From Escherichia coli (GTDB taxonomy: Bacteria; Pseudomonadota; Gammaproteobacteria; Enterobacterales; Enterobacteriaceae), in NCBI RefSeq assembly GCF_024223415.1, contig NZ_CP100500.1: 64,000 nt of DNA; one strand, given 5' to 3'. A program made the position numbers and the translations under genes. The notes beneath the pieces were generated by a model. The model did no database searches, was not told where the DNA came from, and worked only from the letters and a program-made list of their open reading frames with translations. Below are positions 1-46,067 of the stretch, piece by piece; position 1 is the first letter of the stretch; each line of letters begins with the position of its first letter.

Positions 1-503
1 ATCCCGAAACTGTCATGCAAGGCTTTGGCCATCGGCGCAAGGCAGTTAGTGGTGCATGACGCCACGGAAACAATGGTATCGTTGCCATCCAGAGTGTCGT
101 CATTGACGTTATAAACGATAGTTTTCATTTCACCGGCAGGGGCGGAAATCAACACCTTCTTCGCGCCAGCATCGAGATGCGCCTGCGATTTCTCGGCGGA
201 GGTATAAAAGCCAGTACATTCGACAATGATTTCTGCACCTTTCGCTTTCCACGGAATATTTTTAGCCTCTTTTTCGGCGTAAACCGCGATACTTTTCCCA
301 TTAACGATAAGTGAATCTTCCGTAAAATCAACGCTCCAGGGGAACGGTCCGTAGTTTGAATCATGTTTCAGCAGGTAGGCGAGAATTTTTGGAGAAGTGA
401 GATCATTAATAGCGACAACGTCTATGTTGCTTTTGACTTCAAGTAATCGACGCAACACCAGTCGACCGATACGACCAAAACCGTTAATACCAACTTTACT
501 CAT
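1..503 (-). CDS. gapC: glyceraldehyde-3-phosphate dehydrogenase, N-terminal part (gene runs off window start)
   Basis: Reverse-complement from ATG at 503-501 translates [22 protein letters not shown]...SCTTNCLAP, the GAPDH NAD-binding and catalytic-Cys motif; no stop seen in this frame inside the window. Gene is a pseudogene in K-12; status here cannot be judged from the partial copy. Confidence 0.8.
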
Positions 504-691
504 GGTTTTCTCCTGTCAGGAACGTTCGGATGAAAATTGATCCTTTCCAGGCTTAGACCAGGATGGCGGGATGGGCAATCTCCATTCTTACAGTGAAACG
601 TAACGTACTGAAAACGGGTGAACAATATTTAATGAAATTTTGAGAAAAGCCCGTTATGTTAACGGAAAATTATGTTAAAGCAGGAAATGTT

Positions 692-1222
692 ATGGAAAAT
701 AAATACTCAAGGTTACAAATCAGCATTCACTGGCTGGTCTTTTTGCTGGTTATCGCAGCGTATTGCGCAATGGAGTTTCGGGGTTTCTTCCCACGTAGCG
801 ATCGGCCACTCATCAACATGATTCATGTTTCCTGCGGCATATCAATTCTCGTGCTGATGGTCGTTCGTCTTTTGTTAAGGCTGAAATACCCAACCCCGCC
901 GATTATACCTAAGCCAAAACCGATGATGACGGGACTGGCGCATTTGGGACATTTGGTGATTTATCTCCTGTTTATTGCGCTGCCAGTGATTGGTTTGGTG
1001 ATGATGTATAACCGAGGCAACCCGTGGTTTGCGTTTGGTTTGACGATGCCTTACGCTTCAGAGGCCAATTTCGAACGGGTAGATAGCTTAAAGTCGTGGC
1101 ATGAAACGCTGGCGAATCTGGGATATTTTGTCATCGGTTTGCACGCTGCGGCTGCACTGGCACACCACTATTTCTGGAAGGACAACACACTTCTACGCAT
1201 GATGCCGCGTAAACGTTCCTGA
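692..1222 (+). CDS. cybB: cytochrome b561
   Basis: ORF 656-1222; internal Met at 692 gives a 176-aa membrane protein MENKYSRLQISIHWLVF... matching recalled CybB. Confidence 0.9.
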   Translation: MENKYSRLQISIHWLVFLLVIAAYCAMEFRGFFPRSDRPLINMIHVSCGISILVLMVVRLLLRLKYPTPPIIPKPKPMMTGLAHLGHLVIYLLFIALPVIGLVMMYNRGNPWFAFGLTMPYASEANFERVDSLKSWHETLANLGYFVIGLHAAAALAHHYFWKDNTLLRMMPRKRS

Positions 1223-1232
1223 AGGATATTTA

Positions 1233-1296
1233 AAGAAAACGCCTGTACTAAAACCGACCCGTGGTACAGGCGAAGAATACGGGTCTACATCGGAAG
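1233..1296 (-). ncRNA. rydC: RydC small regulatory RNA
   Basis: Reverse complement of 1233-1296 reads CTTCCGATGTAGACCCGTATTCTTCGCCTGTACCACGGGTCGGTTTTAGTACAGGCGTTTTCTT, matching the 64-nt RydC sequence from memory; lies in the cybB-ydcA intergenic region as in K-12. Confidence 0.8.
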
Positions 1297-1466
1297 CGCC
1301 TATTATATTTATTTGTATGACAAATAAAACCATAATCCTTGCCCATACGTCCATCTGGCTTATTTTTAATCAATTCACCCGATCTTTGATCTCATCAACG
1401 GTATCAAAATAAACCAGCGTATAACGTTCAAATCGAACATAAGATTCGATAAACCATGGAGGTTAT

Positions 1467-1640
1467 ATGAAAAAACTGGCACTTATTTTGTTTATGGGAA
1501 CGCTTGTTTCCTTTTATGCCGATGCCGGGCGCAAACCCTGTTCTGGTTCGAAAGGGGGGATCTCACACTGTACGGCAGGCGGCAAATTTGTCTGTAATGA
1601 TGGTTCTATCAGTGCCTCGAAAAAAACATGCACTAACTGA
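1467..1640 (+). CDS. ydcA: small secreted protein YdcA (57 aa)
   Basis: ATG 1467 after a GGAGG-like RBS; MKKLALILFMGTLVSFYADA signal-peptide-like N-terminus; Cys-rich mature part; stop at 1638-1640. Confidence 0.75.
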   Translation: MKKLALILFMGTLVSFYADAGRKPCSGSKGGISHCTAGGKFVCNDGSISASKKTCTN

Positions 1641-1711
1641 AGTGTAAAAGGGGTGCCATGAGAAAATGAATCTGCTAGTCAGATGCGCGGGGAAAATCCC
1701 CGCGCTTGCCC

Positions 1712-1861
<150 letters not shown>

Positions 1862-1894
1862 AGCCTTTCTCCTTGCCGGATGGCGGGTAAGAGG

Positions 1895-1965
1895 CTAAGA
1901 TCTGAATTGCTATGTTCATTCGTTGGCCTCGGTTGATAGAAATATCGGTCGGGGCCTTCGTCTTT
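1895..1965 (+). ncRNA. sokB: probable SokB antisense RNA (approximate)
   Basis: Inferred from hok/sok architecture: antisense RNA is encoded opposite the hok/mok leader just upstream of hokB. Ends not determined from sequence. Confidence 0.35.
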
Positions 1966-2249
1966 CTGATTCCCGGTTAGCCTGAAAACAGAAAGTCTCA
2001 GGCACCCGCAGGCATCCTATGAGGTTTCCTTAGGGACAAAATAATCACTTCACGAAATTGCGTGCTGTTTTCCAGAATTTTTCGTCATTCGGTTTAGCCA
2101 TTCGTTACTCTCTTCATTCCAATGGCATTAATCTTCTCTGCAATAATTGTTGTAAAAATGTGACGCAAAGAGGCTTTTAGTCGTAAGTAATTACCGTCAA
2201 ATGCCGATGACTTTCTATCAGGAGTAAACCTGGACGAGAGACAACGGTA

Positions 2250-3890
2250 ATGAATACAACTCCCTCACAGCGATTAGGTTTTTTGCATCACATCAGGCTG
2301 GTTCCGTTATTTGCCTGCATTCTTGGCGGTATCTTAGTTCTATTCGCATTAAGTTCTGCTCTGGCTGGCTATTTCCTCTGGCAGGCCGATCGCGATCAGC
2401 GTGATGTTACTGCGGAGATTGAGATTCGGACCGGGTTAGCGAACAGTTCAGATTTTTTGCGTTCAGCCCGGATCAATATGATTCAGGCCGGGGCTGCGAG
2501 TCGTATTGCGGAAATGGAAGCAATGAAGCGAAATATTGCGCAAGCCGAATCGGAGATTAAACAGTCGCAGCAAGGTTATCGTGCTTATCAGAATCGGCCG
2601 GTGAAAACACCTGCTGATGAAGCCCTCGACACTGAATTAAATCAACGCTTCCAGGCTTATATCACGGGTATGCAACCTATGATGAAATATGCCAAAAATG
2701 GCATGTTTGAAGCGATTATCAATCATGAAAGTGAGCAGATCCGAACGCTGGATAATGCTTATACCGATATTTTGAACAAAGCCGTTAAGATACGTAGCAC
2801 CAGAGCTAACCAACTGGCGGAACTGGCCCATCAGCGCACCAGCCTGGGTGGGATGTTTATGATTGGCGCGTTTGTGCTTGCCCTGGTCATGACGCTGATA
2901 ACATTTATGGTGCTACGTCGGATCGTCATTCGTCCACTGCAACATGCCGCACAACGGATTGAAAAAATCGCCAGTGGCGATCTGACGATGAATGATGAAC
3001 CGGCGGGTCGTAATGAAATCGGTCGCTTAAGTCGTCATTTACAGCAAATGCAGCATTCACTGGGGATGACAGTAGGGACTGTTCGACAGGGCGCGGAAGA
3101 GATTTATCGTGGCACCAGCGAAATTTCCGCTGGCAATGCGGACCTTTCATCTCGCACCGAAGAACAAGCGGCGGCTATCGAACAAACTGCCGCCAGCATG
3201 GAGCAACTCACTGCGACGGTGAAACAGAATGCGGATAACGCGCATTATGCCAGCAAACTGGCGCAAGAGGCTTCTATTAAAGCCAGCGATGGCGGGCAGA
3301 CGGTTTCCGGTGTAGTAAAAACGATGGGCGCTATCTCCACGAGTTCGAAGAAGATTTCTGAGATCACCGCCGTCATCAACAGTATTGCTTTCCAGACGAA
3401 TATTCTGGCACTGAATGCTGCCGTTGAAGCCGCGCGAGCGGGTGAGCAAGGGCGTGGATTTGCCGTTGTCGCCAGCGAAGTACGGACACTCGCAAGCCGC
3501 AGCGCTCAGGCGGCGAAAGAGATTGAAGGCTTGATCAGTGAATCAGTCAGGTTAATTGATCTGGGGTCGGATGAGGTGGCAACGGCAGGGAAAACCATGA
3601 GCACTATTGTTGATGCCGTCGCGAGTGTCACACATATCATGCAGGAAATCGCCGCCGCCTCGGATGAGCAAAGTAGGGGCATAACGCAGGTTAGCCAGGC
3701 GATTTCTGAAATGGATAAGGTGACGCAACAGAATGCTTCTCTGGTAGAAGAGGCCTCAGCGGCGGCGGTGTCCCTTGAAGAACAGGCGGCACGATTAACT
3801 GAGGCGGTGGACGTATTCCGTCTGAACAAACATTCTGTGTTGGCAGAACCTCGCGGAGTTGGTAAACCAGTTAGTTTCGCTACGGTGTGA
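2250..3890 (+). CDS. trg: methyl-accepting chemotaxis protein III (ribose/galactose sensor)
   Basis: 546-aa ORF with N-terminal TM, periplasmic domain, second TM, HAMP and the highly conserved MCP signalling domain ([21 protein letters not shown]...). Confidence 0.95.
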
Positions 3891-3927
3891 AAATGTTAAA
3901 GGAGGGATCGACAGATCCCTTCACCTT

Positions 3928-4851
3928 TCAGAACGGCATTGATTTTCGAATAGCGTTAATCATCAACTGGCAACCAGAAGAGAACGTCGCATCTACGCGG
4001 GTCAGTATTCCAATCGGTTCGCCTGCACCATGTCCCGGAACAGGCAGGGCCACCAGCGTGGCATGACGCAGGTCGTCTTTTACAGCGCCAGAAGGGACAA
4101 ACCACACGTAATCGTATTCAACCGTAAGTTGACGGGATAGCGAAGCAGACAGCGTTTCGATACAACCCGAAGGAATTTTACATCCCTGGCTCTGCACTAA
4201 TGCATCTGAATGCTGGCGTGGCGCAGTGCCTTCTGGTGATACAACGACCGGCCATTCCAGCACCCGGCTTAGCGTTACGTTCTCCTGAAGTAGCGGGTGA
4301 TTAGGGCGGACAACCAGCTTCAGCGATTCAAGAAACAGCAGTTCGTAATTAAGCCCGGTCATCAGTTCAGGATCTGACATCCGACCAATGCCGATATCGA
4401 TTTCCCCGGTTTTTAAACCCGCCAGAATCATAGGGTTACTCATTGTCGCAACTTGCAAGGTCGTCTCTTTTTGTTGCTGATGAAACTGACCTATAACCGA
4501 AGGTAATATCCCCAGTGCCGCAGTAGGTAGTGCACCAACCCTGACGACATCATTATTAGGACCTTCTTTACGATTAAGCGACTGTCCGGCAGTGTTGATG
4601 GCGTCAAGAACTCTGACTGCATGCGTTAAAAATTGTTCGCCGGGTAAGGTAAGTTGCGCCCCCTGACGACCACGCTCAAACAAGCGAGCGCCCGTCAGTT
4701 GTTCCAGTTCATTCAATGTCTTAGAGAGCGCAGGTTGACTCAAATTAAGGGTTTCAGCCGCGCGCCCCAAAGTTCCTTGTTGTGCGACAGCTACGAATGT
4801 ATGAAGGTGGCGCAAACGGATGCGCTGACTAAACAGACTATTTTTTTCCAT
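3928..4851 (-). CDS. ydcI: LysR-family transcriptional regulator
   Basis: Minus ORF 3928-4992; Met at 4851 gives a 307-aa product with an N-terminal LysR HTH (LRHLHTFVAVAQQGTLGRAAETLNLSQPALSKTL). Confidence 0.85.
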   Translation of the reverse strand: MEKNSLFSQRIRLRHLHTFVAVAQQGTLGRAAETLNLSQPALSKTLNELEQLTGARLFERGRQGAQLTLPGEQFLTHAVRVLDAINTAGQSLNRKEGPNNDVVRVGALPTAALGILPSVIGQFHQQQKETTLQVATMSNPMILAGLKTGEIDIGIGRMSDPELMTGLNYELLFLESLKLVVRPNHPLLQENVTLSRVLEWPVVVSPEGTAPRQHSDALVQSQGCKIPSGCIETLSASLSRQLTVEYDYVWFVPSGAVKDDLRHATLVALPVPGHGAGEPIGILTRVDATFSSGCQLMINAIRKSMPF

Positions 4852-5067
4852 AAGCGATGTTAAAAACGAAGCGGTGTCGCTGACAAGTGAAGTTGTTTGA
4901 TTATGATAACTTGATTGCAAAATATTATTAACAATTAAAGCAATTATGTTACAGCAAAATGGATAATATTGATGTTTTCGCGGCGAGATCACAGTTTGTA
5001 AATTCTTCCCGCCAGAGTGAATGCGGTTACCTACACTCCAGATTACTGACCACTGGAGGCAGACACT

Positions 5068-6411
5068 ATGGCGAACAGCATCACGGCGGATGAGATTCGG
5101 GAACAGTTTTCGCAGGCAATGTCAGCCATGTACCAGCAAGAAGTTCCGCAATATGGCACGCTGCTGGAACTGGTAGCTGATGTGAATCTGGCTGTGCTGG
5201 AAAACAATCCTCAACTGCACGAAAAAATGGTAAATGCAGACGAGCTGGCGCGACTGAATGTTGAACGTCATGGGGCGATTCGCGTTGGGACTGCACAAGA
5301 GCTTGCTACTCTTCGGCGGATGTTTGCCATTATGGGGATGTACCCGGTGAGCTATTACGATCTCTCGCAGGCAGGGGTGCCGGTACATTCGACAGCATTT
5401 CGGCCCATTGATGATGCTTCTCTGGCGCGTAATCCCTTCCGCGTTTTTACCTCCTTACTCCGCCTTGAGCTTATCGAGAACGAAATTTTGCGCCAGAAAG
5501 CGGCGGAGATTCTGCGTCAGCGCGATATCTTCACCCCACGTTGTCGACAACTGTTAGAGGAATATGAGCAGCAGGGCGGTTTTAACGAAACACAGGCACA
5601 GGAGTTTGTGCAGGAAGCCCTGGAAACGTTTCGCTGGCACCAGTCAGCAACGGTAGATGAAGAAACCTATCGCGCCTTGCACAACGAACATCGGTTGATT
5701 GCTGATGTGGTCTGTTTTCCTGGATGCCATATCAACCATCTGACGCCACGTACGCTGGATATTGACCGGGTGCAGTCGATGATGCCTGAATGCGGAATTG
5801 AACCAAAAATTCTGATCGAAGGGCCGCCGCGCCGCGAGGTACCGATTTTACTACGCCAGACCAGCTTTAAAGCACTGGAAGAGACGGTGTTGTTTGCGGG
5901 GCAGAAACAGGGCACGCATACTGCGCGCTTTGGTGAAATTGAGCAGCGTGGCGTGGCATTAACGCCGAAAGGGCGACAACTGTATGATGATCTTCTGCGT
6001 AACGCTGGAACCGGGCAGGATAATCTCACTCACCAAATGCATTTACAGGAAACCTTCCGCACTTTTCCTGACAGTGAGTTTTTAATGCGTCAGCAAGGGC
6101 TGGCATGGTTCCGGTACCGTCTGACGCCTTCAGGTGAGGCGCATCGTCAAGCGATTCATCCCGGAGACGATCCACAGCCCTTAATTGAACGTGGTTGGGT
6201 CGCGGCGCAACCCATTACCTATGAAGATTTCTTGCCCGTTAGCGCGGCGGGGATCTTCCAGTCAAATCTGGGTAATGAAACGCAGGCACGCAGCCACGGT
6301 AATGCCAGTCGCGAAGCATTTGAGCAGGCGTTGGGTTGTCCGGTTTTGGATGAGTTCCAGCTTTATCAGGAAGCGGAAGAACGCAGTAAACGTCGCTGTG
6401 GTTTGCTTTAA
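5068..6411 (+). CDS. ydcJ: DUF1338-family putative metalloenzyme
   Basis: 447-aa ORF with good RBS context, position between ydcI and opgD as in K-12. Confidence 0.85.
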   Translation: MANSITADEIREQFSQAMSAMYQQEVPQYGTLLELVADVNLAVLENNPQLHEKMVNADELARLNVERHGAIRVGTAQELATLRRMFAIMGMYPVSYYDLSQAGVPVHSTAFRPIDDASLARNPFRVFTSLLRLELIENEILRQKAAEILRQRDIFTPRCRQLLEEYEQQGGFNETQAQEFVQEALETFRWHQSATVDEETYRALHNEHRLIADVVCFPGCHINHLTPRTLDIDRVQSMMPECGIEPKILIEGPPRREVPILLRQTSFKALEETVLFAGQKQGTHTARFGEIEQRGVALTPKGRQLYDDLLRNAGTGQDNLTHQMHLQETFRTFPDSEFLMRQQGLAWFRYRLTPSGEAHRQAIHPGDDPQPLIERGWVAAQPITYEDFLPVSAAGIFQSNLGNETQARSHGNASREAFEQALGCPVLDEFQLYQEAEERSKRRCGLL

Positions 6412-6635
6412 ATTCTGACCATCCGCCTTTGCAAAAATTTGCCTGATTTTACAAACGAATCAGGCTCATCCCATCGACATAAAAAAAATGCCGATTTATG
6501 CATATTCTCTCAGTTCAACAATTGGATTATTAATAAATATTGTCTAGAGTGAGCGGTCATAAATAAGCACTTTCTTGCCGCTGAAAACGACCAGCGCGGG
6601 ACCATTCACAACACCAGAAGGACTCACTTTCAGGT

Positions 6636-8291
6636 ATGGATCGTAGACGATTTATTAAAGGTTCAATGGCTATGGCCGCCGTGTGCGGTACCAGCGGCAT
6701 TGCTTCTCTTTTTTCTCAGGCGGCATTCGCGGCAGATTCTGATATTGCCGACGGACAAACCCAGCGTTTTGACTTCTCCATTCTACAGTCAATGGCGCAC
6801 GACTTAGCGCAAACAGCGTGGCGTGGTGCGCCTCGTCCGTTACCTGACACGCTGGCGACAATGACGCCGCAGGCTTATAACAGTATTCAATACGACGCCG
6901 AAAAATCGCTCTGGCATAACGTTGAGAACCGTCAACTGGACGCTCAGTTCTTCCATATGGGAATGGGATTCCGTCGCCGCGTTCGTATGTTTTCTGTAGA
7001 TCCAGCAACACATCTGGCGCGTGAAATTCACTTTCGCCCGGAGTTGTTCAAATACAACGATGCAGGTGTTGATACCAAACAATTAGAAGGGCAAAGCGAT
7101 CTCGGCTTTGCCGGTTTTCGCGTGTTTAAAGCCCCCGAACTGGCGCGACGTGATGTAGTATCATTCCTCGGAGCGAGTTATTTCCGCGCCGTTGATGACA
7201 CATATCAATACGGTTTGTCGGCCCGCGGCCTGGCGATTGACACTTACACCGACAGTAAAGAAGAGTTCCCCGACTTTACCGCCTTCTGGTTTGATACGGT
7301 AAAACCGGGGGCAACTACCTTTACCGTTTATGCGTTGCTCGATAGCGCCAGCATTACTGGTGCCTATAAGTTCACTATCCATTGTGAGAAAAGTCAGGTG
7401 ATTATGGATGTGGAAAATCACCTGTATGCGCGCAAAGACATTAAACAGCTGGGCATTGCGCCGATGACCAGTATGTTCAGCTGCGGTACTAATGAACGTC
7501 GGATGTGCGACACCATTCATCCGCAAATTCATGACTCTGATCGTCTGTCCATGTGGCGGGGCAACGGCGAGTGGATTTGCCGTCCGCTGAATAATCCGCA
7601 AAAATTGCAGTTCAATGCTTACACCGACAACAACCCGAAAGGGTTTGGTTTATTGCAACTGGATCGTGACTTCTCCCATTATCAGGACATTATGGGCTGG
7701 TATAACAAACGCCCAAGTCTGTGGGTGGAACCGCGTAACAAGTGGGGTAAGGGCACCATCGGCCTGATGGAAATCCCAACAACGGGCGAAACGCTGGATA
7801 ACATTGTCTGCTTCTGGCAGCCAGAAAAAGCTGTAAAAGCGGGTGATGAGTTTGCATTCCAGTATCGTCTGTACTGGAGTGCGCAACCGCCTGTTCATTG
7901 CCCATTAGCGCGCGTTATGGCGACGCGTACCGGCATGGGCGGTTTCCCGGAAGGTTGGGCGCCAGGTGAACACTATCCCGAAAAATGGGCGCGTCGTTTT
8001 GCCGTCGATTTCGTTGGTGGTGATCTGAAAGCTGCCGCACCAAAAGGCATTGAGCCGGTGATTACGCTTTCCAGTGGGGAAGCGAAGCAAATCGAAATTC
8101 TCTATATTGAACCCATTGATGGTTATCGTATTCAGTTTGACTGGTATCCGACATCGGACTCCACTGATCCGGTCGATATGCGGATGTATCTGCGTTGTCA
8201 GGGCGACGCTATCAGTGAAACATGGCTGTATCAGTATTTCCCGCCAGCGCCGGATAAACGTCAGTATGTTGACGACCGCGTGATGAGTTAA
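6636..8291 (+). CDS. opgD: osmoregulated periplasmic glucan biosynthesis protein D (Tat-exported)
   Basis: 551-aa ORF; twin-arginine signal [32 protein letters not shown]; OpgG/OpgD-family body. Confidence 0.95.
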
Positions 8292-36006: not shown

Positions 36007-38115
36007 ATGTCAACCGGATTACGTTTCACGCTGGAAGTGGACGGCCTGCCACCGGACGCGTTTGCGGTGGTCTCCTTTCATCTGAACCAGTCACTCTCTT
36101 CACTTTTTTCCCTCGACCTTTCTCTGGTCAGTCAGCAGTTTCTTTCCCTTGAATTTGCGCAGGTGCTGGACAAAATGGCCTACCTGACGGTATGGCAGGG
36201 CGATGACGTACAGCGCCGGGTGAAAGGTGTGGTGACCTGGTTTGAACTGGGGGAGAACGACAAAAACCAGATGCTGTACAGCATGAAGGTGTGCCCGCCG
36301 CTGTGGCGCACAGGGCTGCGCCAGAACTTCCGTATCTTCCAGAATGAGGACATCGAAAGCATCCTCGCTACGATATTGCAGGAAAACGGGGTGACCGAGT
36401 GGAGTCCGCTGTTCAGCGAGCCGCATCCTTCCCGTGAGTTTTGTGTCCAGTACGGCGAAACCGATTACGATTTCCTGTGCCGGATGGCGGCGGAGGAAGG
36501 CATCTTCTTTTATGAGGAGCACGCGCAAAAAAGTACCGACCAAAGCCTGGTCCTGTGCGATACCGTGCGTTATCTGCCGGAGTCCTTTGAGATCCCCTGG
36601 AATCCGAACACCCGTACCGAGGTAAGCACCCTCTGCATCAGCCAGTTTCGCTACAGCGCACAAATCCGCCCTTCTTCCGTGGTGACCAAAGACTACACCT
36701 TTAAACGCCCCGGCTGGGCCGGACGTTTTGACCAGGAAGGCCAGCACCAGGATTACCAGCGCACACAGTATGAAGTGTATGACTATCCCGGACGTTTCAA
36801 GGGCGCCCACGGGCAGAACTTTGCCCGCTGGCAGATGGACGGCTGGCGAAACAACGCAGAAGTGGCGCGCGGAACAAGCCGTTCGCCGGAGATATGGCCG
36901 GGACGGCGAATTGTGCTGACGGGGCATCCGCAGGCGAACCTGAACCGGGAATGGCAGGTGGTGGCAAGTGAACTGCACGGTGAGCAGCCGCAGGCGGTGC
37001 CGGGACGCAGTGGTTCAGGTACCTCGCTGAATAACCACTTTGCGGTAATCCCGGCAGACCGGACATGGCGGCCACAGCCGTTGCTGAAACCGCTGGTGGA
37101 CGGCCCGCAGAGCGCCGTCGTGACGGGACCGGCAGGCGAGGAAATCTTCTGTGATGAACATGGCCGCGTGCGGGTGAAATTTAACTGGGACCGCTATAAC
37201 CCGTCAAACCAGGACAGTTCATGCTGGATCCGTGTGGCACAGGCGTGGGCAGGCACCGGATTCGGTAACCTTGCGATACCGCGCGTGGGTCAGGAGGTGA
37301 TTGTGGACTTCCTCAACGGCGATCCGGACCAGCCGATCATTATGGGGCGCACCTACCACCAGGAAAACCGCACACCCGGCAGCCTGCCGGGAACAAAGAC
37401 GCAGATGACCATTCGTTCGAAAACCTATAAGGGCAGCGGGTTTAATGAACTGAAGTTTGACGATGCGACAGGGAAAGAACAGGTCTACATCCACGCGCAG
37501 AAGAACATGAACACCGAGGTGCTGAATAACCGCACCACGGATGTGATAAACAACCATGCTGAGACCATTGGCAACAATCAGATGATTGCGGTTACCAACA
37601 ATCAGATACAGACGGTGGGCGTTAACCAGATAGAGACGGTGGGCAGTAACCAGATCATTAACGTGGGTTCTGTTCAGGTGGAAACGATTGGACTTGTTCG
37701 TGCGCTGACCGTGGGCGTGGCGTACCAGACGACGGTAGGTGGCATTATGAACACTTCGGTGGCTCTGATGCAGTCCTCGCAGATCGGTTTGCATAAATCT
37801 TTGAGGGTCGGGCTGGGTTATGACGTCAAAGTCGGAAATAACGTTACCTTCACCGTTGGTAAAACGAAAAAGGATGATACCGGGCAGACCGCGATTTACT
37901 CCGCCGGTGAGCATCTGGAGCTCTGCTGTGGTAAGGCAAAGCTGGTGCTGACAAAGGACGGTCAAATTTTTCTCAACGGCACAAAAATTCATTTGCAGGG
38001 TAAGGAGCAGGTTAATGGTGACTCACTGTTGATTAACTGGAACTGTGCAGCCTCGAAATCCCCACCGAAGACCCCTGATGAAAAGCAGGATACGCCGGAT
38101 ATGAGAGAGTACTGA
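36007..38115 (+). CDS. vgrG: type VI secretion spike protein VgrG
   Basis: ATG 36007 after GGAGG; 702 aa; gp27-like N-terminus (MSTGLRFTLEVDGLPPDAFAVVSFHLNQSLSSLFSLDLSLVS) and gp5-like beta-helical repeats (VINNHAETIGNNQMIAVTNNQIQTVGVNQIETVGSNQIINVGSVQVETIG). Confidence 0.9.
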   Translation: MSTGLRFTLEVDGLPPDAFAVVSFHLNQSLSSLFSLDLSLVSQQFLSLEFAQVLDKMAYLTVWQGDDVQRRVKGVVTWFELGENDKNQMLYSMKVCPPLWRTGLRQNFRIFQNEDIESILATILQENGVTEWSPLFSEPHPSREFCVQYGETDYDFLCRMAAEEGIFFYEEHAQKSTDQSLVLCDTVRYLPESFEIPWNPNTRTEVSTLCISQFRYSAQIRPSSVVTKDYTFKRPGWAGRFDQEGQHQDYQRTQYEVYDYPGRFKGAHGQNFARWQMDGWRNNAEVARGTSRSPEIWPGRRIVLTGHPQANLNREWQVVASELHGEQPQAVPGRSGSGTSLNNHFAVIPADRTWRPQPLLKPLVDGPQSAVVTGPAGEEIFCDEHGRVRVKFNWDRYNPSNQDSSCWIRVAQAWAGTGFGNLAIPRVGQEVIVDFLNGDPDQPIIMGRTYHQENRTPGSLPGTKTQMTIRSKTYKGSGFNELKFDDATGKEQVYIHAQKNMNTEVLNNRTTDVINNHAETIGNNQMIAVTNNQIQTVGVNQIETVGSNQIINVGSVQVETIGLVRALTVGVAYQTTVGGIMNTSVALMQSSQIGLHKSLRVGLGYDVKVGNNVTFTVGKTKKDDTGQTAIYSAGEHLELCCGKAKLVLTKDGQIFLNGTKIHLQGKEQVNGDSLLINWNCAASKSPPKTPDEKQDTPDMREY

Positions 38116-38181: not shown

Positions 38182-41100
38182 ATGAGCGGAAAACCAGCGG
38201 CGCGTCAGGGAGATATGACTCAGTATGGCGGTCCCATTGTCCAGGGTTCGGCAGGTGTAAGAATTGGCGCGCCCACCGGCGTGGCGTGCTCGGTGTGTCC
38301 GGGCGGGATGACCTCGGGCAACCCGGTAAATCCGCTGCTGGGGGCGAAGGTGCTGCCCGGCGAGACGGACCTTGCGCTGCCCGGCCCGCTGCCGTTCATT
38401 CTCTCCCGCACCTACAGCAGCTACCGGACGAAGACGCCTGCGCCGGTGGGGATTTTTGGCCCCGGCTGGAAAGCGCCTTCTGATATCCGCTTACAGCTAC
38501 ATGATGACGGACTGATACTCAACGACAACGGCGGGCGGAGCATTCACTTTGAGCCGCTGCTGCCGGGGGAGGCGGTGTACAGCCGCAGCGAGTCAATGTG
38601 GCTGGTGCGCGGTGGTAAGGCAGCGCAGCCGGACGGCCACACGCTGGCGCGGCTGTGGGGGGCGCTGCCGCCGGATATCCGGTTAAGCCCGCATCTTTAC
38701 CTGGCGACCAACAGCGCACAGGGGCCGTGGTGGATACTGGGGTGGTCAGAGCGGGTGCCGGGTGCTGAGGACGTACTGCCAGCGCCGCTGCCGCCGTACC
38801 GGGTGCTTACCGGGCTGGCAGACCGTTTCGGGCGGACGCTGACGTACCGGCGTGAGGCCGCAGGCGACCTGGCCGGGGAAATCACCGGCGTGACGGACGG
38901 TGCCGGGCGTGAGTTCCGTCTGGTACTGACCACACAGGCACAGCGGGCGGAAGAGGCCCGCACCTCTTCGCTATCTTCTTCTGACAGTTCCCGCCCTCTC
39001 TCAGCCTCAGCGTTCCCCGACACACTGCCCGGTACCGAATACGGCCCCGACAGGGGTATCCGTCTTTCAGCGGTGTGGCTGATGCACGACCCGGCATACC
39101 CGGAGAATCTGCCCGGTGCGCCACTGGCGCGGTACACGTATACGGAAGCCGGTGAACTGCTGGCGGTATATGACCGCAGCAATACGCAGGTGCGCGCTTT
39201 CACGTATGACGCGCAGCACCCGGGCCGGATGGTGGCGCACCGTTACGCGGGAAGGCCGGAGATGCGCTACCGCTACGACGATACCGGGCGGGTGGTGGAG
39301 CAGCTGAACCCGGCAGGCCTGAGTTACCGCTACCAGTATGAGCAGGACCGCATCACCGTCACGGATAGCCTGAACCGGCGTGAGGTGCTGCATACAGAAG
39401 GCGGGGCCGGGCTGAAGCGGGTGGTGAAAAAAGAACTGGCGGACGGCAGCGTCACGCACAGCGGGTATGACGCGGCAGGAAGGCTCACGGCGCAGACGGA
39501 CGCGGCGGGACGGCGGACAGAGTACGGTCTGAATGTGGTGTCCGGCGATATCACGGACATCACCACACCGGACGGGCGGGAGACGAAATTTTACTATAAC
39601 GACGGGAACCAGCTGACGGCGGTGGTGTCCCCGGACGGGCTGGAGAGCCGCCGGGCATATGATGAACCGGGCAGGCTGGTATCGGAGACATCGCGCAGCG
39701 GGGAGACAGTACGCTACCGCTACGATGATGCGTACAGTGAGTTACCGGCGACGACAACAGATGCGACGGGCAGCACCCGGCAGATGACCTGGAGCCGCTA
39801 CGGTCAGTTGCTGGCGTTCACCGACTGCTCGGGCTACCAGACCCGCTATGAATACGACCGCTTCGGCCAGATGACGGCGGTCCACCGCGAGGAAGGCATC
39901 AGCCTTTACCGCCGCTATGACAACCGTGGCCGGTTAATCTCGGTGAAAGACGCACAGGGCCATGAAACGCGGTATGAGTACAACGCCGCAGGCGACCTGA
40001 CTGCCGTCATTACCCCGGACGGCAACCGGAGCGAGACACAGTACGATGCGTGGGGAAAGGCGGTCAGCACCACGCAGGGCGGGCTGACGCGCAGTATGGA
40101 GTACGATGCTGCCGGACGTGTCATCAGCCTGACCAACGAGAACGGCAGCCGGAGTGAGTTTACCTACGATGCGCTGGACCGCCTGGTACAGCAGGGCGGC
40201 TTTGACGGGCGGACGCAGCGTTACCGTTATGACCTGACCGGAAAACTCACGCAGAGTGAAGATGAGGGGCTTGTCATCCTCTGGTACTACGATGAATCGG
40301 ACCGTATCACTCACCGCACGGTGAACGGCGAACCGGCAGAGCAGTGGCAGTATGATGGCCACGGCTGGCTGAGAGAAATCAGCCACCTGAGCGAAGGCCA
40401 CCGTGTTGCCGTCCACTATGGCTATGACGATAAAGGCCGCCTGACCGGCGAACGCCAGACGGTGGAGAACCCGGAGACGGGGGAACTGCTGTGGCAGCAT
40501 GAGACGAAACACGCATACAACGAGCAGGGGCTGGCAAACCGCGTCACGCCGGACAGCCTGCCGCCGGTGGAGTGGCTGACGTATGGCAGCGGTTACCTGG
40601 CGGGAATGAAGCTGGGCGGGACGCCGCTGGTCGAGTATACGCGGGACAGGCTGCACCGGGAGACGGTGCGCAGCTTCGGCAATAATGCATATGAACTGAC
40701 CAGCACTTACACCCCCGCAGGCCAGTTACAGAGCCAGCACCTGAACAGCCTGGTGTATGACCGTGACTACGGGTGGAATGACAACGGCGACCTGGTGCGC
40801 ATCAGCGGTCCGCGACAGACGCGGGAATACGGCTACAGCGCCACGGGCAGGCTGGAGAGTGTGCGCACCCTCGCACCGGACCTGGACATCCGCATCCCGT
40901 ATGCCACGGACCCGGCGGGCAACCGGCTGCCGGACCCGGAGCTGCACCCGGACAGTACACTCACAGTGTGGCCGGATAACCGAATCACCGAAGACGCGCA
41001 CTACCTGTACCGTTACGATGAATACGGCAGGCTGACGGAGAAGACGGACCGCATCCCGACGGGTGTGATACGGACGGACGACGAGCGGACCCACCACTAC

Positions 41101-42387
41101 CACTACGACAGCCAGCACCGCCTGGTGTTCTACACGCGGATACAGCATGAGGAGCCACTGGTCGAGAGCCGCTACCTCTACGACCCGCTGGGACGGCGAA
41201 TGGCAAAACGGGTCTGGCGGCGGGAGCGTGACCTGACGGGGTGGATGTCGCTGTCGCGTAAACCGGAGGAGACATGGTACGGGTGGGACGGCGACAGGCT
41301 GACGACGGTGCAGACTGACACCACACGTATCCAGACGGTCTACCAGCCGGGGAGCTTCACGCCGCTCATCCGTATCGAGACAGAGAACGGCGAACGGGAG
41401 AAAATGCAGCGCCGCAGCCTGGCGGAGAAGCTGCAGCAGGAAGGAAGTGAGGACGGTCACGGTGTGGTGTTCCCGGCTGAGCTGGTGAGGATGCTGGACA
41501 GGCTGGAGGAAGAAATCCGGGCAAACTGCGTGAGCAGTGAAAGCCGCCAGTGGCTTGCGCAGTGCGGGCTGACGGTGGAGCGGCTGGCGGCACAGATAGA
41601 GCCGGTTTATTTGCCTGAGCGAAAAATACATCTTTATCACTGTGACCACCGGGGCCTGCCGCTGGCGCTTATCAGTGAAGACGGCAATACGGCGTGGCGC
41701 GGGGAGTATGATGAATGGGGCAACCAGCTTAATGAAGAGAACCCGTATTACCTGCACCAGCCATACCGTCTGCCGGGGCAGCAGCATGATGAGGAATCAG
41801 GGCTGTACTATAACCGGAACCGGTACTATGACCCGCTACAGGGGAGGTATATTACACAAGACCCCATTGGGCTGGAGGGGGGATGGAACCTGTACCAATA
41901 TCCGCTGAATCCAGTGCAACACGTTGATCCATTAGGGCTTAGTACTATGATAATAGGTAACGGCCCCGTTCCTGATAATCCTTTTGGGCATGCTGCGGCG
42001 GCAAATCGATATGGATTAATGAGTTCGGGAACTGGGGATGAGATGGGAGCCTCTGTCTCTGATTATTTTAAAAAGATGCAACCCCGCAGAGATACCTGGA
42101 TTTGGATAATAGATACAACAGATGAAGAAGAACAATGTATGATGAATAAGGCAATAGACCTTAATAAAAAACTAAAAACTATTAACCTCGGGCCTCTTCC
42201 TGTTTTAAATAATTGTTTTAGCCGAACGAACATGATTTTTGAGGCGTGCGGGTTTAACAACCCCTCTATGAATACAAATGCGCCTATAAGCCTACAAGTG
42301 CTCGGTGAGCTTTATGGATATCAAAGATATATTATGCCTAAAGGTCCTTTCACTGGATTCCCATTTGAATTTCAAGAGGTAAAGTAA
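38182..42387 (+). CDS. rhsE: PAAR-domain Rhs polymorphic toxin (T6SS effector), 1401 aa
   Basis: N-terminal [31 protein letters not shown] (PAAR motif); many YD repeats ([30 protein letters not shown]...); Rhs core terminating at PxxxxDPLGL (ends 41940); gene symbol assigned by synteny only. Confidence 0.9.
41941..42387 (+). other. Rhs C-terminal variable toxin domain (about 148 aa), family not recognised
   Basis: Begins immediately after DPLGL; base composition switches from GC-rich core to AT-rich; sequence [25 protein letters not shown]...[19 protein letters not shown]... has no motif I can assign. Confidence 0.75.
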
Positions 42388-42786
42388 ATGGAAATGCTTG
42401 GGAAGATATTAGTGATAATTATTTCCATGATAATTATATCTTGTGATTATTATAATGCTGGCATGGACTATCAAGATAATATAGCCCTCGAGCAAGTCGT
42501 AACATGGGATTCTGATAATATATTCACACCTAATATCTTTGAACATAATGGAAGATGTTTTATGAAGAAAAATGAAACATGGATGTTATTAAATGGAGAT
42601 GCAACACCAAACATTAGAACAATGAGCAATAAGAAAATAGAATGCCTGGAGAAGAGTGAAGTAGAATGGGCTAGTAGGGTTTGCGACAGTATCACAGACA
42701 AGGAAAGGGAAAATCTGAAGGCATTAATATGTAGCAAACCAGCTAAATCAGTTAATACAGGCAAAAGACCAGCGTTAGGATATTGA
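42388..42786 (+). CDS. probable Rhs immunity protein (132 aa, lipoprotein-like)
   Basis: ATG directly abuts rhs stop (TAA-ATG); AT-rich; N-terminal hydrophobic stretch ending in lipobox-like IISC. Confidence 0.7.
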   Translation: MEMLGKILVIIISMIIISCDYYNAGMDYQDNIALEQVVTWDSDNIFTPNIFEHNGRCFMKKNETWMLLNGDATPNIRTMSNKKIECLEKSEVEWASRVCDSITDKERENLKALICSKPAKSVNTGKRPALGY

Positions 42787-43229
42787 AACCGGCACTGCAC
42801 TCTATCACTATTACAATATTCTGAGTGACTAGAGCAACTGCTCCGCCATCCGGGCTAGCAGTATGACGACGAATCCGAACTGCACTACAACTGGCACCGG
42901 TACTACAATCCGGGACAGGGACCAGGGAAAGATCACGGTGTGCCGTAGGCACAAAGATGCAAAACGGGACGTTTTGCATGTAATAAGCATAAGCTTGTGA
43001 AGAGATGGTGGCAGGCCCACCGGGATCTGCTGTCGGAAGTCGGTCCCAAACAACCCCGGCTGCTGTGGTAAAGAGCCAAGGTAGTGAGCGCAGGGGGAAC
43101 GATCAGACGAGATCTGATCCTGTGTGAGATACAGTGAGATGAGTAAACCCGAACCTGTGTTGAAACGTCGTTAGTCCTAAGTGACATCAAAACCGGAGGT
43201 TTCGTGATACCGCCTGGATTAATTTACGG

Positions 43230-44725
43230 GTGAATTCCGAATGCTGCGTAAATGGTGTCCGGCGTATAGCAGGCATGACGCTGTATCAGGCTCTTTGCAG
43301 GAACTACGGGAACCAGTCGTCGCAATGTCAAGAGAGAAATACAAATAACCGAAATTATGAGTATGAGAGTATCGATGTGCGAAACCGGGGCAGAGCTGTT
43401 CGTAGTAGTGAGGAAGCGTTTGTAATGAATGTGGAGCGAAGGGGCAACGTCGGGCAGTCTGCATCACAGCCCAACTGTAAACAGGAGGAGGCTGCGGGTG
43501 AACAGACAAAACCGTTTCAGGTCAGTAAATTGCATGTGGTGGAAGCGTACCGTCGGGTAAAGGCGAATGCCGGAGCTGCCGGAGTGGATAACCAGACGCT
43601 GAAAGATTTTGAGCGGGATCTGAAAGGAAATCTGTACAAAATCTGGAACAGGTTATCGTCGGGAAGCTGGATGCCGCCGCCAGTGCGTGCGGTGGAAATT
43701 CCGAAGAAGGATGGCAGTAAAAGGCTTTTAGGAATACCGACAGTAAGCGATCGAATAGCGCAGATGACGGTGCTGGTAACGTTTGAACCATTAGTGGAGC
43801 GTTATTTCCTGAATGATTCATACGGATACCGGCATGGAAAATCAGCGCTGGATGCAATAGCAGTTACCAGAAAACGTTGCTGGCAATACGACTGGTGTCT
43901 TGAGTTTGATATTAAAGGGTTATTCGATAATATCCCCCACGATTTATTACTCAGGGCAGTGGATAAACATTGCGCGGATAAATGGGTAAGACTGTATATT
44001 CGCAGGTGGCTGACAGCGCCGGTGCAGATGCCGGATGGAACACTGAAGGAAAGAAATAAAGGTACGCCACAGGGTGGAGTCATCAGTCCGGTACTGGCGA
44101 ATTTATTTCTGCACTATGTGTTTGATAAATGGCTGTCGTTACATTATCCGGAAATTCCCTGGTGTCGTTATGCAGATGATGGATTAATTCATTGTGGCAG
44201 TAAACAACAGGCAGAGGAATTACTGAATAAACTGGCAAAACGTTTTCAGGAATGTGGACTGGAATTACATCCGGAGAAAACGAAAATAGTTTACTGCAAA
44301 GACAGCTAACGACAGGCGAACCACGAAACAGTGCAGTTTGATTTTCTGGGTTATACGTTCAGGGCGAGAAGAGCACGTAATCAGCGAAGTGGAAATCTCT
44401 TTACGAGTTTCAGTCCGGCGGTGAGTAACAGTGCGCAGAAAGGCATGATCGAAAAACTCAGGAAACTGCGGCTCAGACGCAGGGTGGAGATGAGTCTCGA
44501 AGATATTGCGAAAAGGCTGAATCCGATGATATCGGGGTGGCTGAATTATTACGCGAAATACCACAAAGATATATTAATCTGACGCTGATTGCGTGGGCGA
44601 GAAAGAAATATAAAACCCTGCGGTATAGAAAGACGAAGGCGTGTCAGCTAATGGAAAGGCTGTCAAAAGAGAAGCCGGAGTTGTTTGCCCACTGGAATGC
44701 AGGACCGGAAAGCGCGTTTGCCTGA
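43230..44725 (+). pseudogene. group II intron-encoded reverse transcriptase/maturase, split over three frames
   Basis: 43230-44309 has RT motifs (RLLGIPTVSDRIAQMTVL, PQGGVISPVLANLFLHYV, CRYADDGLIHC); maturase continues in 44331-44582 (FDFLGYTFRARRARNQRSG...GWLNYYAKYH) and 44537-44725 (IAWARKKYKTL...LFAHW), so there are at least two frame disruptions. Confidence 0.75.
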
Positions 44726-44728
44726 CGG

Positions 44729-44762
44729 GAGCCGTATGAAGCGAGAGTTTCACGTACGGTTC
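44729..44762 (+). ncRNA. group II intron ribozyme domain V
   Basis: GAGCCGTATGAAGCGAGAGTTTCACGTACGGTTC fits the domain V consensus (GAGCCGUAUG...ACGUACGGUUC) with catalytic AGC triad. Confidence 0.8.
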
Positions 44763-44945
44763 TGCGAGAGGCTGTCGGGGAGGTTCCGGTGGCCTACTCA
44801 CTTAACGCTGCTTTTTTGTACTAAATAATTCGCATTTTATGTTTAAAAATTGAGATATTCCCCATTACCTAAAGCTGTTTTTTATTGCTTATACATGATC
44901 AAATACTCCTTACATAATTAAGGAGAACAAAATGGAATTAAAAAA

Positions 44946-46067
44946 TTGATGGAACATATTTCTGTTATCCCCGATTACAGACAAGCCTGGAAAGTGGAAC
45001 ATAAATTATCGGATATTCTACTGTTGACTATTTGTGCCGTTATTTCTGGTGCAGAAGGTTGGGAAGATATAGAGGATTTTGGGGAAACACATCTCGATTT
45101 TTTGAAGCAATATGGTGATTTTGAAAATGGTATTCCTGTTCACGATACCATTGCCAGAGTTGTATCCTGTATCAGTCCTGCAAAATTTCACGAGTGCTTT
45201 ATTAACTGGATGCGTGACTGCCATTCTTCAGATGATAAAGACGTCATTGCAATTGATGGAATAACGCTCCGGCACTCTTATGATAAGAGTCGTCGCAGGG
45301 GAGCGATTCATGTCATTAGTGCGTTCTCAACAATGCACAGTCTGGTCCTCGGACAGATCAGGACGGATGAGAAATCTAATGAGATTACAGCTATTCCTGA
45401 ACTTCTTAACATGATGGATATTAAAGGAAAAATCATCACAACTGATGCGATGGGTTGCCAGAAAGATATTGCAGAAAAGATACAAAAACAGGGAGGGGAT
45501 TATTTATTCGCTGTAAAGGGAAATCAGGGGCGACTAAATAAAGCCTTTGAGGAAAAATTCCCGCTGAAAGAATTAAATAATCCAGAGCATGACAGTTACG
45601 CAATCAGTGAAAAGAGTCACGGCAGAGAAGAAATCCGTCTTCATATTGTTTACGATGTCCCTGATGAACTTATTGATTTCACGTTTGAATGGAAAGGGCT
45701 GAAGAAATTATGCGTGGCAGTCTCCTTTCGGTCCATAATAGCAGAACAAAAGAAAGAGCCAAAAATGACGGTCAGATATTATATCAGTTCTGCTGATTTA
45801 ACCGCAGAGAAGTTCGCCACAGCAATCCGAAACCACTGGCACGTGGAGAATAAGCTGCACTGGCGTCTGGACGTGGTAATGAATGAAGACGACTGCAAAA
45901 TAAGAAGAGGAAATGCAGCAGAATTATTTTCAGGGATACGGCACATTGCTATTAATATTTTGACGAATGATAAGGTATTCAAGGCAGGGTTAAGACGTAA
46001 GATGCGAAAAGCAGCCATGGACAGAAACTATCTGGCGTCAGTCCTTGCGGGGAGCGGGCTTTCGTAA
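44946..46067 (+). CDS. ydcC: H-repeat-associated ISAs1-family transposase
   Basis: 373-aa ORF ([45 protein letters not shown]...) typical of H-rpt/ISAs1 transposases found in Rhs elements; start codon (TTG 44946 or ATG 44949) uncertain. Confidence 0.85.

Follow-up and report, generated by a model that had tools for sequence, protein, structure and literature searches.

The rhs gene described here lies at the classical rhsE locus of Escherichia coli, between yncH and ydcC/pptA, within a 64,000-nucleotide (nt) stretch of contig NZ_CP100500.1 (the window). The part of the window that was tested is 100% identical to E. coli Combat11I9. The Rhs protein ends in a domain of 148 residues, referred to below as the tip, and its gene is followed by a small open reading frame (ORF) that is the candidate for the cognate immunity gene. 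The features that make up this module, with lengths in amino acids (aa), are as follows.

36007..38115, + strand, vgrG, predicting a type VI secretion system (T6SS) spike protein, immediately 5' of rhs, taken from RefSeq annotation of the identical Combat11I9 locus
38182..42387, + strand, rhs, an effector gene of 1401 aa comprising DUF6531, RHS repeats and the RHS core, then the toxin tip
41926..41940, + strand, DPLGL motif (aa 1249-1253), the conserved end of the core and expected site of autoproteolytic release, the cleavage being assumed from published Rhs biochemistry
41941..42387, + strand, C-terminal toxin domain (aa 1254-1401 and the stop codon), a predicted permuted NlpC/P60-type His/Cys enzyme
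41989..41991, + strand, CAT codon of His1270, the predicted catalytic histidine
42214..42216, + strand, TGT codon of Cys1345, the predicted nucleophile
42388..42786, + strand, putative immunity gene of 132 aa, predicting a lipoprotein whose signal peptide has the lipobox IISC, with Cys19 and Asp at position +2

The NCBIfam model RHS_core (NF041261) matches aa 1-1253 of the Rhs protein with 2744 bits (cut-off 2000), ending exactly at DPLGL. YD repeats and Rhs_assc_core (aa 1176-1253) are also found by NCBIfam, while Pfam finds DUF6531 (aa 46-123) and four copies of RHS_repeat; a PAAR motif is weak (E 0.11). An RHS core that ends at PxxxxDPxGL, as this one does, is characteristic of Rhs/YD-repeat polymorphic T6SS effectors, and the locus also displays the compositional break, the variable C-terminus and the small putative immunity gene on the 3' side that are typical of the polymorphic effectors of the Rhs type. 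Linkage to a T6SS spike gene is provided by the adjoining vgrG. No T6SS core genes were found within the 64-kb window.

The first codon of the tip is codon 1254 (AGT, Ser) starting at 41941, and its TAA stop codon is at 42385-42387. An initial annotation, prepared from the letters of the sequence alone, had given precisely these limits and the 148-residue length for the peptide following DPLGL. It had also described the tip as AT-rich relative to a GC-rich core, and the GC content does fall, from 0.631 in the core to 0.399 in the tip and then 0.343 in the ORF that follows, the window as a whole being at 0.495. The proposal made there that the tip is a genuine swapped-in toxin domain is upheld, as the RHS_core model stops at DPLGL, the GC break is located at the same place, and in related proteins the toxin domain begins directly after DPxGL. 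The tip is considered to be coding because a frame of 148 open codons would be unlikely to arise by chance at its own base composition (P about 3e-5).

The tip and the downstream ORF were found jointly in 566 of 5426 complete E. coli genomes (about 10%), at 95-100% identity, and RefSeq names the pair only as 'RHS element core protein' and 'hypothetical protein'. Counted for the ORF, co-occurrence with the tip extends to at least 543 genomes. The Rhs protein carrying the same tip in FDAARGOS_1282 is 1409 aa long. A second chromosomal site was seen in E. coli N3 (NZ_CP031609.1, locus 40-6846), where the same vgrG-rhs-tip-immunity module lies beside yafV/ivy/fadE. That copy has a frameshift in rhs, and its tip has an annotation of its own as a hypothetical protein of 146 aa.

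Searches with the tip gave no Pfam match even at E<=10 and no match in NCBIfam or PADLOC, and PDB sequences were matched at chance level only, whether by phmmer with the single sequence or with the family profile. Relatives were recovered by an exhaustive phmmer search over 1.84 billion cluster representatives, in which 167 proteins share the tip domain at E<=1e-3. After one profile step, all of the relatives align across the whole 145-residue domain, which is essentially always at the extreme C-terminus. The long relatives are Rhs/YD proteins, and the N-terminal flanks of the shorter ones end in the Rhs DPxGL motif right before the domain. A motif scan of reference genomes added 32 further loci, each related to the family at E<=1e-30 in hmmsearch and all with the domain in the C-terminal position. 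This family of about 170 cluster representatives is covered by no Pfam or NCBIfam model.

In an alignment of 57 tip-family sequences (A1), the invariant residues are Asn14, Gly17, His18, Ser29, Gly31, Arg51, Cys93 and Pro116, which correspond to N1266, G1269, H1270, S1281, G1283, R1303, C1345 and P1368 of the Rhs protein. Residue counts were made on 259 complete domains, including the 32 from reference genomes; the position of His1270 is occupied by His in 258 and that of Cys1345 by Cys in all 259. Among the candidate catalytic residues picked out in the initial annotation, His1270 (in GHAAAAN) and the first Cys of NNCFS (Cys1345) are those conserved throughout the family, whereas the second Cys (Cys1356, in EAC) is not at a conserved position in A1. 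The invariant Asn1266, Ser1281 and Arg1303 are candidates for a third polar residue that orients the His. Either the role of third catalytic residue or the binding of a phosphate head group may fall to one of N1266, S1281 (in its G-x-x-S-x-G context), R1303 and P1368.

An AlphaFold2 model computed on A1 was obtained with a mean pLDDT of 92.5 and a pTM of 0.87. In this model, His1270 opens a beta strand (model residues 18-23) and Cys1345 opens a helix (model residues 93-103). Because the His, on a strand, precedes the Cys, at the N-terminus of a helix, the arrangement is that of a circularly permuted papain-like enzyme. Solved permuted members of the superfamily were matched significantly by the model, and the structure matches scored as follows.

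YiiX (2if6), 10.5
T6SS effector TseH (6v98), 10.2
Bacillus cereus YiiX-like cysteine hydrolase (3kw0), 9.0
MARTX fatty-acyltransferase RID domain (5xn7), 7.6
next match in the list, 5.6
PPPDE, 5.2
PLAAT4, 4.4

A Foldseek search against AFDB50 returned other Rhs tips together with proteins named DUF4105 or Lnb N-terminal periplasmic domain (E 3e-12 to 1e-6, TM-score 0.7-0.8). On the basis of the predicted structure, the tip very probably adopts a permuted NlpC/P60 fold with a His1270/Cys1345 dyad. The statement in the initial annotation that the tip is of an unrecognised family therefore needs to be divided. It holds for sequence comparison, as the profile searches proposed there came back empty from Pfam, NCBIfam, PADLOC and PDB sequences, but the structure prediction proposed alongside them, followed by structure comparison, places the tip in the permuted NlpC/P60 class.

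Two further enzyme classes were considered. An alpha/beta-hydrolase lipase of the Tle type is rejected, since the fold is papain-like and the invariant G-x-x-S-x-G at Ser1281 does not constitute a GxSxG nucleophile elbow. A canonical NlpC/P60 amidase effector (Tae1-4) does not fit, as the order in the tip is His then Cys and not Cys then His.

The TAA of rhs directly abuts the ATG of the 132-aa ORF, and AAGAGG is found upstream of that ATG. Library scans assigned the 132-aa protein to no family, NanM-type and zinc-ribbon matches being at chance level only. In E. coli, Asp at position +2 of a lipoprotein is an inner-membrane retention signal, and the 132-aa lipoprotein is predicted under this '+2 Asp' rule to be held in the inner membrane.

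Neighbouring immunity candidates were also surveyed in the 32 reference-genome loci, in 31 of which a downstream ORF could be scored. Most of these 31 ORFs bear a lipobox or one or more hydrophobic segments of the transmembrane (TM) type, and at least six families with no relationship to one another can be distinguished. Represented are lipoproteins (often with an N-terminal Cys-Asp), ankyrin-repeat lipoproteins, three kinds of protein with a single anchor, and mini-proteins with 2-4 TM segments; neighbours of this last, multi-TM type are found next to a few distant relatives of the tip. About four of the 31 lack such a signal and make poor candidates, since L015 is simply the detached end of the toxin domain, while two others have an odd composition and overlap the toxin stop codon.

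Antidote candidates that are exported or membrane-bound point to a toxin that is active in the periplasm or at the membrane, and, judging from these sequences, the tip is likely to act in the envelope. Such a site fits a lipid substrate and speaks against a cytoplasmic protein target. Enzymes that modify cytoplasmic proteins do occur among the structure matches, and the tip could in principle catalyze lysine fatty-acylation in the manner of MARTX RID or act as an isopeptidase of the PPPDE/DeSI kind. However, RID and PPPDE score below YiiX and TseH, and a toxin of the cytoplasm needs a cytoplasmic antidote, whereas for most of the immunity candidates beside this toxin family the prediction is export or a place in the membrane, making a cytoplasmic role very improbable. 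Rhs cargo is generally thought to act in the cytoplasm, and an Rhs-fused toxin family with predicted periplasmic antidotes runs counter to that view.

A toxin of the same fold class is Tox-Act1 (STox_15), a T6SS effector of Salmonella pathogenicity island 6 (SPI-6) with a permuted NlpC/P60 core (Nicastro et al. PLoS Biol 2026, PMC12994826; bioRxiv 2024.09.27.615498). Tox-Act1 is toxic in the periplasm only, depends on H43 and C151, and cleaves phosphatidylglycerol and phosphatidylethanolamine to lysolipids; it has been placed as a sister to DUF4105 (PMC12994826). Phospholipase activity of TseH was reported in the same study (PMC12994826). TseH (VCA0285, PDB 6v98), from the Vibrio cholerae T6SS, also shares the fold class of the tip. 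By analogy with Tox-Act1 and TseH, phospholipids are considered the probable substrate of the tip.

Another candidate activity is that of a peptidoglycan amidase or endopeptidase that cuts cell-wall peptides in the periplasm, as the canonical NlpC/P60 effectors of the Tae type do. This is improbable for the tip. The permuted order of its His and Cys is the reverse of that in Tae and P60 enzymes, the strong structural matches are all in the permuted, lipid-directed branch, and cells intoxicated by Tox-Act1 lyse with the sacculus intact (PMC12994826).

For comparison at the sequence level, the Tox-Act1 gene was rebuilt by matching the primer sequences of the published study to a Salmonella contig in PLSDB, and H43 and C151 fall at their published places. 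PLSDB entry OX345044.1 (5.4 kb) is listed as a 'plasmid' of Salmonella, but ahead of the Tox-Act1 gene it has a large ORF of chromosomal appearance and is therefore most likely a mislabelled chromosomal contig. Tox-Act1 scores only 2.3 bits against the A1 profile in hmmsearch. An hhalign comparison of A1 with an alignment of 19 Tox-Act1 homologues (A2) gives a probability of 2.4%, the aligned part being the '[DN]NC' helix only. These two values rule out membership of the tip in the Tox-Act1 sequence family.

The tip and Tox-Act1 are alike in having a permuted NlpC/P60 fold with a His-then-Cys dyad, in being T6SS cargo and in their likely action in the envelope, and the Cys motif of Tox-Act1, GNNC-TTHS, resembles LNNC-FSRTN in the tip. 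They differ in the spacing of His and Cys, which is 108 residues in Tox-Act1 and 75 in the tip. Tox-Act1 is a stand-alone or PAAR-fused protein of 279 aa with a C-terminal extension, whereas the tip is fused to Rhs. The immunity proteins are also different, with two TM helices in the Imm-Act1 type but a lipoprotein with one N-terminal hydrophobic segment at the present locus.

The homologue tables of the Tox-Act1 study include many proteins fused to Rhs, PAAR or CdiA (PMC12994826). The DUF4105b sheet includes the E. coli Rhs protein QMP79959.1, which is made up of DUF6531, RHS repeats, RHS and DUF4105 (PMC12994826) and shares its core architecture with the Rhs protein described here. None of the 32 contigs recovered from reference genomes is present in two parts of the S3A homologue list, and the organism names of the tip relatives are absent from the available portions of the tables (PMC12994826). 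An Rhs tip of Kluyvera annotated as DUF4105 has no DNA match in the E. coli genome collection. The tip thus agrees with Tox-Act1 in fold class, dyad and biology, yet lies outside its sequence family, and by both sequence and Foldseek it is nearer to DUF4105 than to Tox-Act1.

In Bacteroides, DUF4105 forms the catalytic domain of Lnb, a lipoprotein N-acyltransferase that depends on a Cys. The corresponding Pfam model, Lnb_N (PF13387), matches 3 of the 57 tip-family sequences at E<=1e-3 and 8 of the 57 at E<=0.1, with a best E of 8.7e-5. The match in family member P0250 (E 4.3e-4) covers model positions 94-157 and spans the strand-helix-Cys region. No Lnb_N match was obtained among the Tox-Act1 members, in contrast to the tip family. 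DUF4105/Lnb is the family closest to the tip, weakly by sequence and also by Foldseek against AFDB; the fold is the same with the catalytic Cys after the His, and NCBI and UniProt name some of the tip homologues DUF4105. However, the tip itself has no Lnb_N match at E<=10, and Lnb, with five TM helices fused to it, has a housekeeping function and is not a secreted toxin with an immunity gene.

This relationship suggests a different substrate in the same compartment. The tip might target lipoproteins, adding or removing acyl chains on their N-terminal Cys (for example in Lpp or Lol substrates) and so poisoning sorting or envelope integrity. DUF4105/Lnb_N is the only Pfam family matched by any member, the nearest AFDB structures outside the Rhs proteins are those of DUF4105 proteins, and the known activity of Lnb is the acylation of lipoproteins. 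Lipoproteins were also raised as possible Tox-Act1 targets by the authors of that study (PMC12994826), and many immunity candidates of the tip family are themselves lipoproteins. Nevertheless, both tested toxins of the fold class, Tox-Act1 and TseH, acted as phospholipases, a lipoprotein is the usual way to position any periplasmic inhibitor, and the Pfam similarity is weak even at its best. A lipoprotein target is for these reasons considered unlikely, although among the alternatives to phospholipids it ranks first, ahead of peptidoglycan cleavage and of cytoplasmic protein modification. It also appears quite unlikely that the tip family forms a separate branch of toxins within the Lnb/DUF4105 acyltransferases instead of being a phospholipase of the Tox-Act1 type, with the lipid anchor of lipoproteins or another acylated envelope molecule as substrate; in such a branch, the Cys-Asp lipoprotein immunity proteins could serve as inner-membrane decoys or blockers.

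Other known proteins resemble the tip in part. The YiiX/YaeF-like permuted papain-like enzymes (Peptidase_C92; 2if6, 3kw0) are non-toxin cellular proteins and have no sequence similarity to the tip, the PDB profile search being empty. The T6SS lipases Tle1-5, with their Tli lipoprotein immunity proteins, are similar in predicted biology, in which a periplasmic hydrolase of membrane lipids is neutralised by a lipoprotein. However, their fold and chemistry are unrelated to the Cys/His tip, Tle1-4 being GxSxG lipases with an alpha/beta-hydrolase fold and Tle5 a phospholipase D. No previous work on the tip described here came to light in the literature searches. The C-terminus of RhsE from enterohaemorrhagic E. 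coli EDL933 has been described by in-silico threading as an 'S-layer adhesin' (PMC7216683), though the EDL933 tip may differ from the one described here. A 61-aa ORF with a lipoprotein signal was reported downstream in EDL933 (PMC7216683).

Taken as a whole, the tip is more probably than otherwise a T6SS effector delivered by VgrG and Rhs that acts in the envelope as a phospholipase or acyl-hydrolase. From published work on Rhs proteins, VgrG would carry the Rhs protein, whose shell would enclose the 148-residue tip cut off after DPLGL, and the freed tip would enter the envelope of a neighbouring cell. There Cys1345, activated by His1270, would be expected to attack a membrane lipid at an acyl ester or amide bond via a thioester intermediate, with hydrolysis or transfer to follow. 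The likeliest reaction would be of the phospholipase A type, in which the phosphatidylethanolamine or phosphatidylglycerol of the periplasmic leaflet loses fatty acids, giving lysolipids and then lysis. In the producer, the 132-aa lipoprotein, anchored in the inner membrane and facing the periplasm, would bind or block the toxin.

The region 3' of the putative immunity gene contains decayed and mobile sequences.

42843..42920, + strand, degenerate Rhs core-end remnant (orphan cassette stub) of 78 nt, a 74% identical direct repeat of 41766-41843
43007..44802, + strand, group II intron with a frameshifted reverse transcriptase (RT) gene, directly after the Rhs stub; Rfam RF01999 (D1-D4) at 43007-43122 and RF00029 (domain 5/6) at 44727-44802
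44949-46067, ISAs1/H-repeat transposase, 3' of the group II intron

The stub sits just 3' of the putative immunity gene and is the decayed remainder of a former or orphan Rhs cassette. The RefSeq annotation of the intron region lists ltrA as a pseudogene, together with an ISAs1 transposase. Decay of this kind around the locus, together with the frameshifts seen in rhs in some strains and the lack of T6SS core genes in the window, could indicate that the tip is itself an inactive relic, a decayed cassette that has no present function. Against this, the 1401-codon frame is intact and its AT-rich tip has stayed open in spite of the low chance probability given above, every residue that is invariant in the family is present in the tip, and the tip and immunity gene have been kept together at high identity in about a tenth of E. 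coli genomes. A relic is consequently regarded as extremely improbable. On the other side of the module, positions 1-36000 of the window are ordinary E. coli core genome (trg, opgD, tehAB, ydcS-V, curA, ansP), in which the small toxin genes hokB, hicAB and ortT and a decayed IS200/IS605 tnpA-insQ pair are also located.

The tip is an uncharacterised member, covered by no family model, of a recently described kind of toxin, and it does not represent a new kind of system. The toxin/immunity pair is carried by about one in ten complete E. coli genomes, and assignment of the toxin to the permuted NlpC/P60 lipid-directed enzymes supplies a proposed mechanism that is concrete and testable, with H1270 and C1345 as the key residues. 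Because their immunity proteins are predicted to be exported, the Rhs cargoes of this family appear to act in the periplasm, and they form a large set that stands against the rule that Rhs cargo means a cytoplasmic target. The tip merits attention at the bench, given how common it is in E. coli and that its family shows Rhs shells carrying cargo that appears to act in the periplasm. If the tip family were instead to prove a branch of the Lnb acyltransferases, it would represent a new mode of interbacterial killing, the sabotage of lipoprotein acylation by a toxin delivered in an Rhs shell.
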